A stretch of DNA of 29,103 bases from a virus. Its lineage: Duplodnaviria; Caudoviricetes. The position numbers and the translations under genes were made by a program. The stretch is taken from the IMG/VR virus record IMGVR_UViG_3300012663_000119, positions 1 to 29,103 of that record; one strand, 5' to 3'. A model generated the notes under the pieces. That model saw only the letters and a program-made list of their open reading frames with translations. It was not told the DNA's origin and did not search any database. Shown here one piece after another: positions 680 to 29,103 of this stretch. How positions within the stretch are numbered: the first letter of the stretch is position 1; the number at the start of each line of letters is the position of its first letter.

Positions 680-1456
680 ATGAGAAAGAGATTGTTTTTT
701 GACATCGAAACATCGTTTAATATTGGAATATTTTGGCGAAGTGGTTACAACTTAAACATCCAACCAGACGACATTATTAAAGAGCGTGCTATTATTTGTG
801 TAAGTTGGAAGTGGGAAGGCAAAGACGAAGTGCATCATTTAACGTGGGACAAAAACCAATGCGACAAGAAACTACTTAAAGACTTCATTAAGATATTAAA
901 TCAAGCAGATGAAATTGTTGCTCACAATGGAGACCGATTCGATATAAAATGGTTGCGTACACGTTGCTTGTTGCACCAGATTGATATGTTTCCACAATAC
1001 CAAACAATAGATACGCTTAAACACGCTAAAAGTCAGTTTAATTTCAATTCTAATAAGTTAGATTACATTGCTAAGTTTCTTGGAGTTGGTGCAAAGTTGA
1101 AACACGAAGGTATGGATATGTGGAAAGCAATCATTTTCAACAAAGATGCTAAAGCACTTGAACGGATGGTTGAGTACTGCGATATGGATGTTAAAGTACT
1201 GGAGAAAGTTTACGAAAGATTAGCACCATACACAAAACACAAAGTTAATTATGCAGTTTTACGAGGTGGCGAAAAGTTCGAATGTCCGAATTGTGGCAAG
1301 TTACCACATTACAAAAGTATGTACACGACTTCTGCTGGAACTATTCAACACAGAATGCAATGCTCAGACAGACAAGTATGCAATAAAAAGTTTACTATAA
1401 ACAACAAAACTTATATGGATTTTATTCAATTTAAGTTGCGTAATAACATAAATTAA
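680..1456 (+). CDS. RNase H-like (DnaQ/YprB-type) 3'-5' exonuclease with C-terminal Zn ribbon
   Basis: FFDIET, AHNGDRFD and YCDMDV DEDD-type motifs; CPNC...C....C at the C-terminus. Confidence 0.85.
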   Translation: MRKRLFFDIETSFNIGIFWRSGYNLNIQPDDIIKERAIICVSWKWEGKDEVHHLTWDKNQCDKKLLKDFIKILNQADEIVAHNGDRFDIKWLRTRCLLHQIDMFPQYQTIDTLKHAKSQFNFNSNKLDYIAKFLGVGAKLKHEGMDMWKAIIFNKDAKALERMVEYCDMDVKVLEKVYERLAPYTKHKVNYAVLRGGEKFECPNCGKLPHYKSMYTTSAGTIQHRMQCSDRQVCNKKFTINNKTYMDFIQFKLRNNIN

Positions 1457-1465
1457 TTATATTTG
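1436..1465 (+). promoter_or_regulatory. Bacteroidota housekeeping-sigma promoter driving a short non-coding transcript
   Basis: TTG (1436-38), 19 nt spacer, TATATTTG (1458-65). Confidence 0.75.
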
Positions 1466-1469
1466 CACT

Positions 1470-1550
1470 GAATTCGCTTTTGGACACGTGAGTTTTTCAT
1501 AGTTTTTTAGTTTAAATTGTTAGAAGTGGGGAGAAATCCTCACTTTTTTT
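1470..1550 (+). ncRNA. Candidate ~80 nt sRNA with a U-rich seed antisense to translation-initiation regions
   Basis: Lies between a consensus promoter and a strong terminator; no ATG on +; weak 5' hairpin, then TTTCATAGTTTTTTAGTTTAAATTGTTAG. Confidence 0.6.
1524..1550 (+). terminator. Intrinsic terminator with GAAA tetraloop
   Basis: AAGTGGGGA-GAAA-TCCTCACTT followed by a T run. Confidence 0.85.
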
Positions 1551-1625: not shown

Positions 1626-1655
1626 TTGCAGATATAAACATTATACTTAGATTTG
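1626..1655 (+). promoter_or_regulatory. Early host-sigma promoter
   Basis: TTG (1626-28), 19 nt spacer, TAGATTTG (1648-55), with an AT-rich upstream tract. Confidence 0.75.
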
Positions 1656-1684
1656 TCAAACAAAACAATTAAAAAATAGAAATT

Positions 1685-1876
1685 ATGACAATTCAAGACA
1701 AAGCATACCAACTAATGACAATCAAAGCTGACTTGTTAGAAGTAACTTTAGGAGAACGTACAAATGTAGAAACAATAAAAGAAGGTAAAACTTCATTTTC
1801 TTACAAAGTATGGTTTTGTAATTCAAATAATAAAATTCAAACAAGAAATATTAATGTATCTGTAAAAGGGTATTAA
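1685..1876 (+). CDS. Hypothetical early protein
   Basis: ORF with an A-rich leader directly after the promoter. Confidence 0.65.
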   Translation: MTIQDKAYQLMTIKADLLEVTLGERTNVETIKEGKTSFSYKVWFCNSNNKIQTRNINVSVKGY

Positions 1877-1927
1877 AAAAACAAGGGGTGCGACTTGACA
1901 ACGCACATTAACTTTAAACTTTAAGAT

Positions 1928-2110
1928 ATGAAAACATTACACAACACATTTAACCCTAATTACAAACCTACTCAAATAGAGAATGAGTACGTACCAAGAG
2001 TTAACCACATAAACGATGTGATACGCAAACAATTTTTTACTACGTTTGACGAGCAACGATTAAACAGAATTCGCCAAATTAAGTTAAACAATTTAAACGA
2101 GAAACGATGA
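1928..2110 (+). CDS. Hypothetical protein
   Basis: ORF with ATGA overlap to the next gene. Confidence 0.65.
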   Translation: MKTLHNTFNPNYKPTQIENEYVPRVNHINDVIRKQFFTTFDEQRLNRIRQIKLNNLNEKR

Positions 2111-2322
2111 ACTATAAACTACAAGAAAAGGCAAACGATTTAATGGAGTTGCATAAAGAAATGAATTACAGAATTTGGAAACTTGAAGCATTTACAAAAT
2201 CTTTAGACTTGTTCACTGAATTACAAGCAAAGCACTTAAACAGAATTGACACTTGCAAACGTGGACTTGAAAGAATTGAACAAGCATATATCAAAGTATT
2301 AACCGAAATTTTAGCAGTATGA
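2107..2322 (+). CDS. Hypothetical helical protein
   Basis: Translationally coupled ORF. Confidence 0.65.
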   Translation: MNYKLQEKANDLMELHKEMNYRIWKLEAFTKSLDLFTELQAKHLNRIDTCKRGLERIEQAYIKVLTEILAV

Positions 2323-3080: not shown

Positions 3081-3467
3081 ATGAATTTAATTAAGATTAC
3101 AGAATTAATAGAAAGATACGAGTTGAATACACCATCCCGTAAACGTGAAAAGGTTTACATAAGAAGTGTGCTTTATCATTTTCTACGCAACAACAGAATG
3201 ACGTTAGATAGAATCGGTAAAATGTTTGGAAAAGGACACGCTACAATTTTACATGGCTTGGAATGTTACGATAGAAACAAAAACTATCCAGACTTTAAAG
3301 AGTTAATTGAGTTAGTTGAAAACGAGTTAGAAGTTTCTTGCATTGATATACCAGACGAAGAAAAATTGCAGCTAACAGAAGCGGAATTGGATATATTAGA
3401 AGCTAATTCATTGCAGGACTTTTGGCAGATTAAAAATAATTTGATAAAAAAGTTATCAATTAAATAA
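3081..3467 (+). CDS. DnaA C-terminal (domain IV)-like HTH DNA-binding protein
   Basis: SRKRE.V..R...Y......TL..IGKMFGKGHATILHG resembles the DnaA signature (SL.EIG..FG.RDHTTV.HA). Confidence 0.8.
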   Translation: MNLIKITELIERYELNTPSRKREKVYIRSVLYHFLRNNRMTLDRIGKMFGKGHATILHGLECYDRNKNYPDFKELIELVENELEVSCIDIPDEEKLQLTEAELDILEANSLQDFWQIKNNLIKKLSIK

Positions 3468-3474
3468 AAATGTT

Positions 3475-3482
3475 TATATTTG
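3475..3482 (+). promoter_or_regulatory. Host-sigma -7 element before the recombination operon
   Basis: Intergenic TATATTTG; the -33 element is weak (TTA at 3453). Confidence 0.65.
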
Positions 3483-3513
3483 TATACGTTATTAACAATT
3501 AAAAACTAAGAAA

Positions 3514-4020
3514 ATGAAAAATCTATTTAAAAGTTTAGCAGAATTTCAACAAGAAGTTCCAGTAATTCACAAAGCAACACAAGGTTATGGTTATACATTT
3601 GCAGATTTGCCAAAAATATTTAGCGTAATTAATCCACTATTAAAAAAGCACGGATTGGGATTTACGCAATTAATCGAAAACGAAAATTTAACTACTATTT
3701 TGTTTCACGTAGAATCTGGAGAAACAATAGAAAGTAAAATGGCATTGCTTAAAGATGTATCGCTTAAAGGAATGAATGAGTTTCAAGTCTATGGTTCGCA
3801 ATTAACTTATTTTAGACGTTACGCATTGAGTTCTATTTTAGGTATCGTTACAGACAAAGATACGGATGCTGGTGGAGAACAAGTAAAGAAAGTTAAAACA
3901 ATCACAGATGAACGTTTTAATAAAGCAATTGAAGCAATAGGCAAAGGACTTGCAAAGAAAGAAGATTTACTTCAATTTGAATTAACTGAATCACAAAAAT
4001 TAACATTTGCAACGCTATGA
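3514..4020 (+). CDS. erf: ERF-family ssDNA annealing protein
   Basis: Y.FADL..I...I.PLL.KHGL.F.Q, H.ESGE and GSQLTYFRRYAL..ILGI..D.D.D motifs. Confidence 0.9.
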   Translation: MKNLFKSLAEFQQEVPVIHKATQGYGYTFADLPKIFSVINPLLKKHGLGFTQLIENENLTTILFHVESGETIESKMALLKDVSLKGMNEFQVYGSQLTYFRRYALSSILGIVTDKDTDAGGEQVKKVKTITDERFNKAIEAIGKGLAKKEDLLQFELTESQKLTFATL

Positions 4021-5018: not shown

Positions 5019-5068
5019 TTTTCTCCTTTTCGGTGGGTGGTTAAACCGATATTTTTAAACTAAAAACT

Positions 5069-5251
5069 ATGGAGCAGTACGTAATTTTATATTGGTTATC
5101 AAACGGTAAACCAGACCGAGTTATAGTAAGTGCAGAAAGCAAAGCAGAAGCATTGAAAGAAGCAGACAAGCACCCAAGCATTATTTACTATTGTGATACT
5201 ATGGATAATTGGATTCAGTTTTGCGAAGATAGGAGAGGGAATTTTAAATAA
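5069..5251 (+). CDS. Hypothetical protein
   Basis: ORF with an A-rich leader. Confidence 0.65.
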   Translation: MEQYVILYWLSNGKPDRVIVSAESKAEALKEADKHPSIIYYCDTMDNWIQFCEDRRGNFK

Positions 5252-5747: not shown

Positions 5748-5850
5748 TATATTTGCAGTAGTTCGTTCCGACATTATAGAACATTAAGAAATTATTTACC
5801 CTGTAAATGAAGTAAGAGGTCGGAGCCTTACGGATTTTATGGGGTTTTTT
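5748..5850 (+). promoter_or_regulatory. Promoter -7 box plus structured 5' leader (terminator hairpin with loop-loop pairing) of the replication operon
   Basis: TATATTTG at 5748-55; two hairpins whose loops GTTCCGAC and GTCGGAGC are complementary; T run at 5845-50. Confidence 0.7.
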
Positions 5851-5864
5851 ATTAAACAAAAAAT

Positions 5865-6509
5865 ATGAGCGGTTGGATTAAATTACACAGACAAATAACT
5901 GATTGGGAGTGGTACGATGACCATAATACATTTAGATTGTTTATGCACTTACTTTTAAAAGCTAATCACAAAGAGCGAAATTATAGAGGGGTTAAAATTG
6001 AAGTCGGTTGCATAATGACTGGTAGAGAATTGTTATCTAAAGAAACTGGCTTATCAGTTCAGCAAATTAGAACGTGTTTAGAACGTCTAAAATCAACCAA
6101 CGAAATAACCGTCAAATCAAATAAGCAAGGTACTATAATTCAAGTAGTTAAGTATAAAGATTATCAAGTAACAACCAACGAATCAACCACAAATCAACCA
6201 ACAAGTAACCAACAAGTAACCACTAACAAGAATGTAAAGAAAGAAAAGAATGATAATAATACATTTACACCGCCTTCGGCTTTTGATGTTTTAGACTATT
6301 GTAAAGAAAGAAAAAACTATGTTGATGCTGAAACATTTATTGCATTTTATCAATCAAAAGGTTGGATGGTTGGTAGAAACAAAATGAAAGATTGGAAGGC
6401 TTGTGTGCGTACTTGGGAAAAAAGTAGTTTAGGCCAAATTAAACAACAAGAACCAATTGAAGATAAATATATGAATCACGTAATGAAACAAATAAACTTA
6501 AATAAATAA
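5865..6509 (+). CDS. Phage replication initiator (lambda O / DnaD-like organisation)
   Basis: GWIKLHR.I.DWEWY N-terminal wHTH, low-complexity T/N/Q linker, and F..P....V..YC...F..FY.SKGW.VG..KMKDWKA.VRTW C-domain. Confidence 0.85.
   Translation: MSGWIKLHRQITDWEWYDDHNTFRLFMHLLLKANHKERNYRGVKIEVGCIMTGRELLSKETGLSVQQIRTCLERLKSTNEITVKSNKQGTIIQVVKYKDYQVTTNESTTNQPTSNQQVTTNKNVKKEKNDNNTFTPPSAFDVLDYCKERKNYVDAETFIAFYQSKGWMVGRNKMKDWKACVRTWEKSSLGQIKQQEPIEDKYMNHVMKQINLNK
6173..6225 (+). repeat. Iteron-like repeats; probable replication origin inside the initiator gene
   Basis: AACCA cores at 6173, 6185, 6196, 6207 and 6218 (11-12 bp period), followed by an A-rich tract. Confidence 0.65.
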
Positions 6510-6512
6510 ATT

Positions 6513-6779
6513 ATGAATATTTTAGAAAAAGCAAATGAGATTGTTAATTTACGATCAGAAGAAAAATCAAGAATGTACGGTGATTTTCATTTATCAATGG
6601 AAAAAACATCAAATTTAGCCTCTATAATGTCTAATAAAGATATTAGTATAAATGATTGCTATAATGTTTTAATTGCATTAAAATTAGCAAGACAAGCAAA
6701 TAACCATAAAGAAGATAATTTACTTGATGCTGTTGCTTATATTGGTTCTTTAAATGATTTTTTAAATAAAAATAAATAA
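6513..6779 (+). CDS. DUF6378-like all-alpha protein, putative nucleotide pyrophosphohydrolase-related
   Basis: IL..A..IV......R.YG.F, LKLAR and H..DN..D..AY pattern. Confidence 0.7.
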   Translation: MNILEKANEIVNLRSEEKSRMYGDFHLSMEKTSNLASIMSNKDISINDCYNVLIALKLARQANNHKEDNLLDAVAYIGSLNDFLNKNK

Positions 6780-21808: not shown

Positions 21809-22236
21809 TGGCAACATTTAAAGTAAAATACGCTACACGTAATAAGTTAGCAAGGTCTTTGCAGAAAGAGATTAAAGACTTAGGTCTTTATCAAGATGGT
21901 GCATTGTACGATTCAATACGTGTGTCTGCAATGATAGGAGATAAAATAAATAAAATAGATATCACTATTAATGCGATGTACTATTATTTGTTTTTAGATG
22001 AGGGAACGAGTAGAGGAATACCGCCTTACTCAATAACTGACAAATGGTTAAGACGTTCTGACGTTAAAGATATACTTGCAGAAGTAACACAAGACTTTAT
22101 TGCTTGGCAGTTTGAACAATTCCCACTTTTGCAAATGGCTAAGATTCTAAACAATCCAATGGTATCTATTAAATTTAACTGGATTGACTCGCCTTATCCA
22201 AATCTAAAAACAGACCCAACAACTGCATTCTTTTAA
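21808..22236 (+). CDS. Probable neck/tail completion protein (HK97 gp10-like)
   Basis: G.LYDSI and YY.FLDEGT motifs. Confidence 0.55.
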   Translation: MATFKVKYATRNKLARSLQKEIKDLGLYQDGALYDSIRVSAMIGDKINKIDITINAMYYYLFLDEGTSRGIPPYSITDKWLRRSDVKDILAEVTQDFIAWQFEQFPLLQMAKILNNPMVSIKFNWIDSPYPNLKTDPTTAFF

Positions 22237-22964
22237 AGTTGTAGTTCAGTCTTCATTGATAGCATATTAAAAGCAAAGATAAGATTCATTTTAAGGACAT
22301 CGTCAATCTTAGTAATGTCCTCATTTGCTAAGATGTAAAGCGTTTTTTCCCACGACCATTTGTTTAGATTGTCTTCTTTCTTTATTTCTTCCTTTTCCTC
22401 ATCGGTCAAATCGTCTTCAATTTCATCTGTTGCTGGTTCTTGGAATAGATTGATATAAACTTCCATAAAGTTTTCACGAAATTTTATATACTCTTGCACT
22501 ATTCCGAATACATCGGTACATTTAACATCTTTAAATAGTTGTTTTCTTTGCTCAATATCGTACTCATACGGCTCCATTACTTCATTATCCCACTCATCAA
22601 AACGTTTCTTTCTATAAACAACGCTACAAATGTCTGACAAGTGAGCGTAATAGTTGTTAGTAAAGTAATGCTCTAAGTCTATAAACTCTCCAACTTTTAA
22701 ATGTTGTAAACCTATGTAGTGCAAATCGGCAATTATCCGATTTACTGGTTTATTTGGGTCACGATTTATGAAGTTAATCTCTTTTATTAGTTCCGTTAAC
22801 TCGTCAAAATCCAAATCATATACATCATTTATGTCAGTATCGGACAAGATGCTTATTGCTTCTACGTGAAAATCAAATATAGAATCGAAAGAGTCAACTT
22901 GTAACCCTTTCAATTCCATAAATTGTTCTACACTTACGTTATTCCACGACTTCGGTAGGTGCAT
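22233..22964 (-). CDS. Hypothetical acidic protein, possibly tail-assembly-chaperone-like; paralog of 22939-23487
   Basis: 243-aa minus-strand ORF; LPKSW..VSVEQF, LKVGEFIDLE and ICSVVYRK segments. Confidence 0.75.
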   Translation of the reverse strand: MHLPKSWNNVSVEQFMELKGLQVDSFDSIFDFHVEAISILSDTDINDVYDLDFDELTELIKEINFINRDPNKPVNRIIADLHYIGLQHLKVGEFIDLEHYFTNNYYAHLSDICSVVYRKKRFDEWDNEVMEPYEYDIEQRKQLFKDVKCTDVFGIVQEYIKFRENFMEVYINLFQEPATDEIEDDLTDEEKEEIKKEDNLNKWSWEKTLYILANEDITKIDDVLKMNLIFAFNMLSMKTELQL

Positions 22965-23487
22965 TTTGTAGTCTGTTAGATAATTTTAAACCAATAAACG
23001 TAGCATAAGGTATTGCAAGTTCAGCAGAAAGAGAACTAAACAATTTAGCCTTTTGTTTGATGTGTGCGTCTGCGTAGTGTTCAGCTTTAGTTAAGTCGTT
23101 ACGCTTAAACAATACCGACATCAAGTAACTAATGTAATTGTGTGGATGGTTAGATACTTGCTTCTCAATCATTTTCATTTCACGCACTGATATTTTCAAT
23201 TCGTCTTCGTGCGATGTGTAAGTATATCCATCTAACTCAATCACTTTACAAAACTCGTTTGATGGTTTTACTTTAGTGTCTGAGAATATCTTAATGTATT
23301 CCACAAACTCGCTAAACTCCAAATCGTACACATCGGATTCTGGTACACCTAAATAAATTAAAAGGTTAGCCCAACGTTCAAACTTTTCTACATCCTCATC
23401 ATTTAAAATACGAGAAACATTCTCGAACTGCTCAATTGTAAATTCATTGATTTCGTTCTTAACATCAAATTCTTTAATTTTTACCAT
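22939..23487 (-). CDS. Hypothetical acidic protein; paralog of 22233-22964
   Basis: 182-aa ORF; INEFTIEQF, DVYDLEFSEF, ISVREMKMIE and LMSVLFKR segments. Confidence 0.75.
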   Translation of the reverse strand: MVKIKEFDVKNEINEFTIEQFENVSRILNDEDVEKFERWANLLIYLGVPESDVYDLEFSEFVEYIKIFSDTKVKPSNEFCKVIELDGYTYTSHEDELKISVREMKMIEKQVSNHPHNYISYLMSVLFKRNDLTKAEHYADAHIKQKAKLFSSLSAELAIPYATFIGLKLSNRLQNAPTEVVE

Positions 23488-23500
23488 ACGTTTTTTTCTT

Positions 23501-23530
23501 CAAATATACAAATTTTTAAACACTTAACAA
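23501..23530 (-). promoter_or_regulatory. Host-sigma promoter for the inverted two-gene operon
   Basis: On minus: TTG (23530-28), 19 nt spacer, TATATTTG (23508-01). Confidence 0.75.
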
Positions 23531-28730: not shown

Positions 28731-29103
28731 AAATAGATTTCAAGCACTTATTCTCAATGCTATTACTTTGGTTAATTTCAATTTATTTAGTATTTTATTT
28801 TAGTTCGTGTTCGGCAAAATGGCATATTAACAGAGCATACAAAAAAGGTGCAAAGTTAGAGCAAACAAGCGACACGATTCGCATTGCTTCAATAGACTCA
28901 TTTAAAGTAGTTTTAAACGATACTTTTTACTTCGAGAAGTATTTTACCACAAAAGATACAATCATTCAGTACAAACGCTTATATGTGCCTAAAACACGCT
29001 TTGAAACACGAATAGAATATAAACTTAAACGCGATACGTTAAGACTTGAAAAAGTTAAAATACGCAAAGAATATAGAACTAAAACAAAGCCGTTCCCATA
29101 CAC
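28727..29103 (+). CDS. N-terminal part of predicted unimolecular spanin (lipoprotein); runs off the contig end and is absent from the ORF track
   Basis: MKIDFKHLFSMLLLWLISIYLVFYFSS-C lipobox (Cys28); frame open to the end; ATGA overlap with holin. Confidence 0.7.
   Translation, partial: MKIDFKHLFSMLLLWLISIYLVFYFSSCSAKWHINRAYKKGAKLEQTSDTIRIASIDSFKVVLNDTFYFEKYFTTKDTIIQYKRLYVPKTRFETRIEYKLKRDTLRLEKVKIRKEYRTKTKPFPY
28976..29103 (+). repeat. Imperfect terminal direct repeat, right copy
   Basis: About 84% identical to 1-128. Confidence 0.95.

Follow-up and report, generated by a model that had tools for sequence, protein, structure and literature searches.

The genome of a small tailed phage carries, at the boundary between its late and its early genes, about 80 nt enclosed by a promoter and a terminator. 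Is this cassette a gene for a regulatory RNA, and which mRNAs would such an RNA address? The initial annotation had proposed a stand-alone plus-strand RNA gene with an anti-start seed that matches early and recombination genes of the phage itself, and the comparative evidence given below supports this part of it. Its further suggestions, namely host genes as targets, the replacement of a protein repressor, and superinfection exclusion, are treated here as possibilities; that an architecture of this type is already established for Bacteroidota sRNAs (FopS/GibS) had escaped it.

Phage genome and likely host

The window, i.e., the whole stretch of DNA analysed, is an entire virus record of 29,103 bases (99% complete according to CheckV). 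Its gene set comprises an endolysin, an exonuclease, a run of short genes that includes an ERF recombinase and an exonuclease, a DnaD-like loader, and a thymidylate synthase, as well as helicase, terminase, tape measure, head, and portal genes, and the terms early, middle, and late as used here are inferred from this content and its order. Integrase, CI-type repressor, and antirepressor genes were not recognised among the 48 ORFs compared with PHROGs and the 28 compared with Pfam; due to the many ORFs that lack a family match, divergent versions could still exist. The sole helix-turn-helix found in these scans is of the DnaA C-terminal type and is located at 3081. By exonuclease comparison the closest cultured relatives are Flavobacterium phages (57%), with which the early promoter region also shares 77% identity over 96 nt, and the best terminase matches (33%) occur in Bacteroides and Parabacteroides phages. 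Judged from these similarities, the host is likely a Flavobacterium-type bacterium.

The genome ends (1-127 and 28977-29103) overlap imperfectly: the reading frame is shared and several positions are substituted, a pattern that would be expected if a circularly permuted genome had been assembled from a mixed population. Minus-strand genes number only two (22233-23487); they are situated in the virion region behind a consensus promoter at 23508 and gave no PHROG or Pfam match. On the plus strand at 5748-5864, an untranslated leader of 100 nt lies downstream of a second -7 element and ends in a terminator-like hairpin and T-run directly ahead of the DnaD-like replication gene. This element could be an attenuator or a further small RNA; its fold z is only -0.65 and no Rfam match was obtained.

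Anatomy of the cassette

Promoter, seed, and terminator follow each other in this order on one strand, and the exonuclease gene upstream is the final gene ahead of the early block (Table 1). The promoter and the GAAA-loop terminator described by the initial annotation can be read directly from the DNA, and no ATG occurs between them on the plus strand, as had been stated. The 81-nt RNA folds with a z of -2.96, a value equalled by 1 of 200 shuffles, and a weak internal hairpin is predicted to mask part of the seed. A plain terminator scan returned only 5 terminators in 15 kb, which equals the shuffle mean of 5.0, and thus the terminator by itself is unremarkable; what is remarkable is the combination of promoter, seed, and terminator and its conservation. 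The same terminator would also stop read-through from the exonuclease gene.

Table 1. Cassette, flanking elements, and predicted target sites in the window
Feature	Position	Strand	Remarks
DNA polymerase exonuclease-subunit-like gene, upstream neighbour	680..1456	+	phrog_403, E 2.6e-62; RNase_H_2
Bacteroidota-type promoter, TTG-N19-TATATTTG	1436..1465	+	TTG 1436-1438, 19-base gap, TATATTTG 1458-1465; overlaps last exonuclease codons
Predicted small RNA, ~80 nt	1470..1550	+	5' end placed from the promoter (1470-1472)
5' hairpin, 8 pairs	1470..1495	+	first 26 bases of the predicted RNA; 3' arm overlaps first seed bases
U-rich seed, antisense to A-rich leader, AUG, and first codons	1490..1523	+	1498-1500 pairs with AUG
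Intrinsic terminator	1522..1550	+	11-pair stem, GAAA loop, T-run
Downstream promoter of the cassette's type, ahead of the short early-type gene block	1626..1655	+	
Predicted target, start of first early gene at 1685	1663..1696	+	-18.3 kcal/mol
Weaker predicted target, start of gene at 1928	1895..1936	+	-15.9 kcal/mol; matched by 39/619 stand-in host starts
Predicted target, start of 71-aa gene at 2107	2086..2120	+	best, -22.9 kcal/mol; 12-nt exact complement
Predicted target, start of ERF ssDNA-annealing gene at 3514	3492..3524	+	-21.1 kcal/mol
Predicted target, start of 60-aa gene at 5069	5047..5075	+	-19.6 kcal/mol; 13-nt exact complement

Conservation and seed lineages

Relatives of the upstream exonuclease were surveyed at the 80 loci listed out of 159. 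A cassette directly 3' of the exonuclease gene was observed at 63 of the 80 loci, 16 lack it, and one locus is too short. With an exonuclease identity of at least 70%, 63 of 66 usable loci carry the cassette, while none of the 13 loci with 54-57% identity has one behind this gene. Due to close kinship, and since two loci stem from the same contig, these counts are not independent. The cassettes fall into five seed types, namely A (20 loci, including the lineage of the window), C (19), D (12), E (11), and F (1), those of lineages E and F being delimited by eye. The terminator hairpins are unrelated between the lineages, and the order of promoter, anti-start seed, and terminator is nevertheless kept. 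Locus L059 lacks the U-rich anti-start seed; in the position of the cassette, just 3' of the exonuclease gene, it has a promoter-like site together with a 5' hairpin and a terminator.

The seed core (1494-1507) does not vary among 12 distinct sequences of lineage A, and 99% of the terminator cells in the lineage-A alignment are paired. In the 5' hairpin, five of the eight pairs are changed on both sides, distributed over essentially three stem types, and this covariation was not reached by any of 500 shuffles. The -7 element of the promoter is kept in the relatives, the TTG at -33 is not. In lineage C, where the 5' end is open, the seed reads CGU instead of the CAU of the others, which preserves pairing with AUG by a G-U wobble and destroys the minus-strand ATG.

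The exonucleases of lineages A and C are 90-96% identical, yet the seeds differ and the ERF proteins share only 27-29% identity. Furthermore, cassettes of types D and E were also found behind other upstream genes. Both observations indicate that the cassette travels with the early block and not with the upstream gene. We regard it as very probable that the cassette is a real RNA gene.

Predicted pairing with early genes of the phage

The seed (1490-1523) was paired in silico with the 48 start regions of the genome, duplex energies being calculated mostly without accessibility, seeds delimited by hand, and starts called by a simple script. The five best-pairing starts all belong to early genes, in the order 2107, 3514, 5069, 1685, and 1928 (Table 1); the ERF start at 3514 has a -7 element of its own a short distance upstream, at 3475. 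Two of the targets named by the initial annotation stand, with 18 pairs and a one-base bulge in the leader of the 5069 gene (5054-5071) and with the match in the ERF leader (3493-3521). The third, the gene at 1928, pairs more weakly than the start at 1685, and the best site, at 2107, had been missed. Co-folding of the whole RNA gave -17.8 for 2107, -17.5 for 3514, and -16.9 for 5069; the values are -14.2 for 1928 and -12.1 for 1685, and five other starts range from -4.8 to -12.7.

The pairing with phage starts, for which a control against shuffles had been suggested, is better than that of dinucleotide shuffles of the seed, 4 of 500 of which were as good at the best site and none of 500 in the mean of the top three or in the overall mean. 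When all 905 ATG contexts of the window are considered, early starts make up four of the top five. In the relatives the same ranking is noisy, and the top matches of lineage C are mostly internal ATGs. A rank test over the early and late starts of the window alone shows no difference (p 0.12).

Host background and lineage specificity

Genome G013 (3.5 Mb), selected because it is rich in Flavo-1 RNAs, served as stand-in host, and 619 starts were called by script in 800 kb of it. At or below -18.3 kcal/mol, a threshold taken from the fourth-best site of the window itself, 4 of 14 early, 0 of 9 middle, 0 of 23 late, and 11 of 619 stand-in host starts were found (Fisher p 1.8e-4). Only 1 of the 62 host starts in the top tenth of the leader score reaches this threshold, and hence leader strength alone is an insufficient explanation. 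Approximately 2% of the stand-in host starts pair equally well, which extrapolates to some 50 genes in a 3.5-Mb genome, and one of them pairs better than any start of the phage.

For five lineages, the seed of each was scored on the early starts of each and scaled to the host background. In this matrix the assignment of every seed to its own lineage ranks first of the 120 possible on both statistics, and it ranks 40 and 87 of 120 when late starts are used. The result is stable with alternative seeds. A control spacer adjoining the terminator ranks 119 and 109, and of 25 shuffled seed sets none reaches the observed value, one of them also ranking first. Own-seed matches at z <= -2, in counts that pool related genomes, amount to 4/14 early vs 0/22 late, 38/115 vs 1/74, 15/67 vs 1/47, 2/13 vs 0/11, 7/47 vs 0/53, 5/39 vs 1/39, 13/33 vs 0/33, and 1/11 vs 1/10. 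Lineage F, represented by one seed, has little own match (1/11). The lineage-C seeds complement an AAACAGA motif in the leaders of their ERF and first genes, and one lineage-E seed is a 20-nt exact complement of an early start in its own phage. A chromosomal FopS seed, scored as a control, shows no enrichment on early starts of the phages.

Inside lineage A no fine-scale tracking was observed: the seed of the window scores -1.14 on the starts of its relatives and -0.95 on its own, and the lineage-A seed of the relatives fits the starts of the window better (-1.18 vs -1.09). In 13 more distant records, mostly fragments for which all genes were scored, two statistics show no preference for the own genome (p 0.64 and 0.45) and a third shows a weak one (p 0.04), all three values being calculated without the window. 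Own matches are missing in three of these 13 records; the complete record G362 has 8 of 56, its top gene start resembling those of the ERF-like genes of lineages C and E. The covariation of seed and target for which the initial annotation had suggested a search is thus present across the five close lineages and mixed in more distant phages. An inverted copy of the own leader, inherited together with the early block, could yield an identical diagonal without present-day repression; such an inverted duplication would not explain the retained promoter, the compensatory changes in the hairpin, or the wobble.

Considering the host background, an RNA with other main targets has to be weighed: host mRNAs, e.g., those of outer-membrane transporters, a receptor, or defence genes, or the starts of competing phages, the fit to the own genes being a by-product of origin. 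FopS, a paralogous sRNA family of Bacteroides thetaiotaomicron whose members combine a canonical promoter and a terminator with a single-stranded seed at the 5' end, blocks translation by start-codon pairing on susC mRNAs, as described for FopS-10 in the accessible text of PMC11697453, and 13 of 14 letters of the window seed core are identical to a Bacteroides FopS copy. The equally well pairing host starts point in the same direction, as do the resemblance of the seed complement to the leader profile learned from the stand-in host, the 4 of 29 exact 22-letter seed matches in viral contigs that are start-codon contexts of other viruses and not cassettes, and the cassettes of distant phages that lie among virion or chaperonin genes, some of them without own match. 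Against this stands that the seeds of close lineages differ sharply and in step with their own early leaders, whereas the host-aimed FopS seeds are nearly invariant across the Bacteroidales. Moreover, no conserved host target was identified in the 800 kb of the one stand-in genome scanned. We consider predominantly foreign targets unlikely.

In another phage (L095:4514-5119 and 6016-6618; also L082 and L103) two paralogous 200-aa proteins with a signal-peptide-like start carry a C-terminal YPNP-type motif, a putative sorting domain for type IX secretion. One of these L095 genes has a start region that is an exact 24-nt complement of the window seed.

Occurrence in other phages and in chromosomes

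Two pattern scans of viral contigs returned 80 distinct promoter-plus-seed matches, and a terminator follows in 41 cases; the background rate is 4 of 268 at viral seed-like sites without promoter and 5 of 233 at host sites. The majority of the 41 terminator-bearing cassettes belongs to lineages A, D, and E, and approximately 12 are found elsewhere, following virion, chaperonin, or lysis genes. At L158 and L241, cassettes are located directly 3' of phage-borne groEL and groES genes. The record of the window contains one cassette, and 14 other viral records contain one each where the pattern could see it, with no pattern match in one. No match to the promoter-plus-seed pattern was obtained in the cultured Flavobacterium phage mumin6-1. 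In four RNA runs, only short contig pieces of a relative were found, which run through the terminator and, as contigs, show neither ends nor strand.

A rival proposal denies an active RNA and sees in the locus nothing but the terminator of a late operon, accompanied by the relic of an inverted leader or by the beginning of a leftward gene since lost. Such a proposal agrees with the position at the end of an operon, which calls for a terminator in any case, with the low complexity of the sequence, and with the lack of conservation of the -33 element in relatives. It is difficult to reconcile with five different seeds and unrelated terminators that hold the same order, with the enrichment of terminators behind promoter-plus-seed matches, and with the compensatory changes in the 5' hairpin. 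A lost leftward gene finds no support on the minus strand either, where a consensus -7 element is missing between 1500 and 1767. In all, a mere relic appears rather improbable.

A 15-codon ORF is indeed present on the minus strand at 1500-1453, and the initial annotation had named it as the possible expressed unit. As a functional unit it was rejected due to its length of 4, 5, 15, or 22 codons among the 12 distinct lineage-A sequences and the missing ATG in lineage C, and a cis-encoded antisense RNA directed against a real opposite-strand gene was discarded because no conserved minus-strand gene or transcript unit was recognised.

In chromosomes, a promoter-seed-AGGUUAA scan of species genomes gave an estimated number of approximately 7,400 stretches. 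Nearly all of the 124 chromosomal loci listed are titled Bacteroidales, a terminator is present in 109 of 129 matches, and the seed is almost invariant. The accessible text of PMC11697453 describes FopS for the Bacteroidaceae only and mentions that a Caudovirales phage carries one copy. Far outside this family, the FopS seed was observed together with promoter and terminator (L251-L374) under Prevotellaceae, Muribaculaceae, Paludibacteraceae, Dysgonomonadaceae, Porphyromonadaceae, and Parabacteroides titles. Two more chromosomal seed variants share the promoter-seed-AGGUUAA layout and have other middle and 3' parts (L295, L301, L314, and L336; L263, L268, L277, L321, and L139); they may represent GibS-like or undescribed families.

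In the genus of the stand-in host, a strict and narrow pattern matched 1 of 151 genomes, and a terminator was not seen there by eye; due to the narrowness of the pattern, a chromosomal copy in this genus counts as not found rather than absent. A looser pattern matched 28 genomes of a 201-genome class sample. Of 20 non-canonical matches fetched, two have a terminator, and many of the remaining loose matches are ordinary gene starts. A single-copy FopS-like cassette occurs in all three genomes of a small low-GC family of the Bacteroidia (L375:2952-3030, L376:2994-3075, and L396), in both cases examined directly upstream of a metalloproteinase-like gene.

That the U-rich, FopS-like RNA acts as a decoy for a host RRM protein of the RbpB type or another leader-binding factor, and thereby shifts translation, is very unlikely: FopS does bind RbpB sequence-specifically (PMC11697453, accessible text), an AGGUUAA-like element precedes the terminator in lineages C to F and in several distant cassettes as it does in FopS, and each of the three Flavo-1-rich genomes tested has RRM_1 proteins (4 of 5 genomes overall), but this element is missing in the lineage of the window, G158, the sole low-GC genome tested with a chromosomal FopS-like copy, has no RRM_1 match, and a decoy need neither preserve complementarity to AUG by wobble nor track the own leaders.

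Proposed mode of action

Since the middle of the RNA mirrors the start-codon regions of early genes, the RNA likely lowers their translation without a repressor protein. Flavobacterium initiates translation without Shine-Dalgarno pairing, and adenines at -3, -6, -12, and -13 promote initiation (PMC6847099, accessible text); covering leader and AUG should therefore block ribosome loading. A start-codon block has been demonstrated for FopS (PMC11697453) and proposed for GibS (PMC7366714), according to the accessible parts of both papers. On balance, it is probable that a small RNA of the phage pairs across leader and AUG of several of its own early mRNAs, likely blocking the loading of ribosomes, and to about the same degree we favour the own early genes as its main targets.

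According to this proposal, host RNA polymerase would transcribe the cassette from infection on, as is presumed for the early promoter next to it, which is of the same type. Capped by its hairpin, the RNA would accumulate, possibly supplemented by read-through from the exonuclease gene that ends at the same terminator, and would then cover the Kozak-like A-rich region and the AUG in the manner of FopS-10 on susC. In sum, early proteins, i.e., the products of the first genes behind early promoters and the ERF recombinase, would be braked with a delay, in a phage without recognisable integrase or CI-type repressor. Such a delayed brake on early translation is the most likely role that we infer. 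A guard against related incoming phages is a further possibility.

Few phage-encoded regulatory RNAs have been described, as stated in the accessible text of 10.1101/2024.10.31.621285. It is tempting to speculate, though rather doubtful at present, that many Bacteroidota phages time their cycle by an RNA address system, in which an RNA that co-evolves with a lineage-specific leader motif silences dispersed early genes, replaces a protein repressor, and silences incoming related phages, and that FopS-type and phage RNAs form one phylum-wide superfamily exploiting the absence of Shine-Dalgarno pairing. If the proposed brake is real, it would explain a possible shutdown of early expression in small repressor-less Bacteroidota phages, with initiation devoid of Shine-Dalgarno pairing allowing one RNA to address many genes via a common leader-plus-AUG motif. 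In addition, it would provide a compact and reprogrammable 80-nt repressor scaffold for Flavobacterium genetics.

Relation to known small RNAs

The best Rfam match of the window is FopS (RF04319) at 1490-1553, over the full model length, with 30.3 bits against a cut-off of 56 and an E of 0.72. On other phage cassettes the model scores 37.5 and 28.7 bits, and four further phage loci and one chromosomal locus gave no match at E up to 2. Common to FopS, as presented in the accessible text of PMC11697453, and the RNA of the window are the housekeeping Bacteroidota promoter, the short length, a start-codon-pairing U-rich seed around UUUUCAU, and the intrinsic terminator. The 3' extension of FopS with AGGUUAA is missing in the lineage of the window and kept in lineages D and E. 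Furthermore, the RNA of the window carries a conserved 5' hairpin ahead of the seed, which renders the seed internal, whereas the 5' end of FopS is single-stranded. The window RNA is encoded by a single copy in a phage, FopS by 12-15 chromosomal paralogues; the phage seeds vary between lineages and fit their own early genes, whereas FopS hardly varies and is directed against susC mRNAs of the host. The predicted RNA of the window would work like FopS and is not filed as a member of this family.

GibS of B. thetaiotaomicron likewise uses an extended AU-rich single-stranded seed around the start codons of repressed targets; unlike the RNA of the window, it is chromosomal, has metabolic targets, and contains two seed regions (PMC7366714, accessible text). 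No word beginning with "phage" occurs in the text of this paper.

Among phage RNAs, C4 of P1 (PMC8198154) and OOP of lambda (10.1101/2024.10.31.621285) are small and lower the expression of own genes by pairing as well. According to the accessible text of these sources, they serve lysis-lysogeny circuits via the ant operon and the cII-O mRNA, respectively, whereas the RNA of the window would address a leader-plus-AUG region common to several dispersed early genes. In contrast to P1 C4, no repressor/antirepressor immunity region was recognised among the scanned ORFs of the window, and its Rfam scan gave no match to a family of the C4 or OOP type. PreS/LPR1 of lambda is a phage-encoded trans-acting sRNA, too. 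It differs in that it was studied as part of the E. coli Hfq interactome, has host genes as its targets, and enhances translation initiation of dnaN (10.1101/2024.10.31.621285, accessible text), and a likeness in sequence or structure is not expected.

In the literature covered, to which subscription papers mostly do not belong, no paper was found on a Bacteroidota phage sRNA directed against own early genes, and the sole printed link encountered is the brief mention of a FopS copy in a phage. The kind of RNA is already known, from FopS and GibS on the one hand and from the phage antisense RNAs C4 and OOP on the other hand; what appears to be new, judged by this literature, is a phage-borne seed that tracks the leaders of its own early genes.
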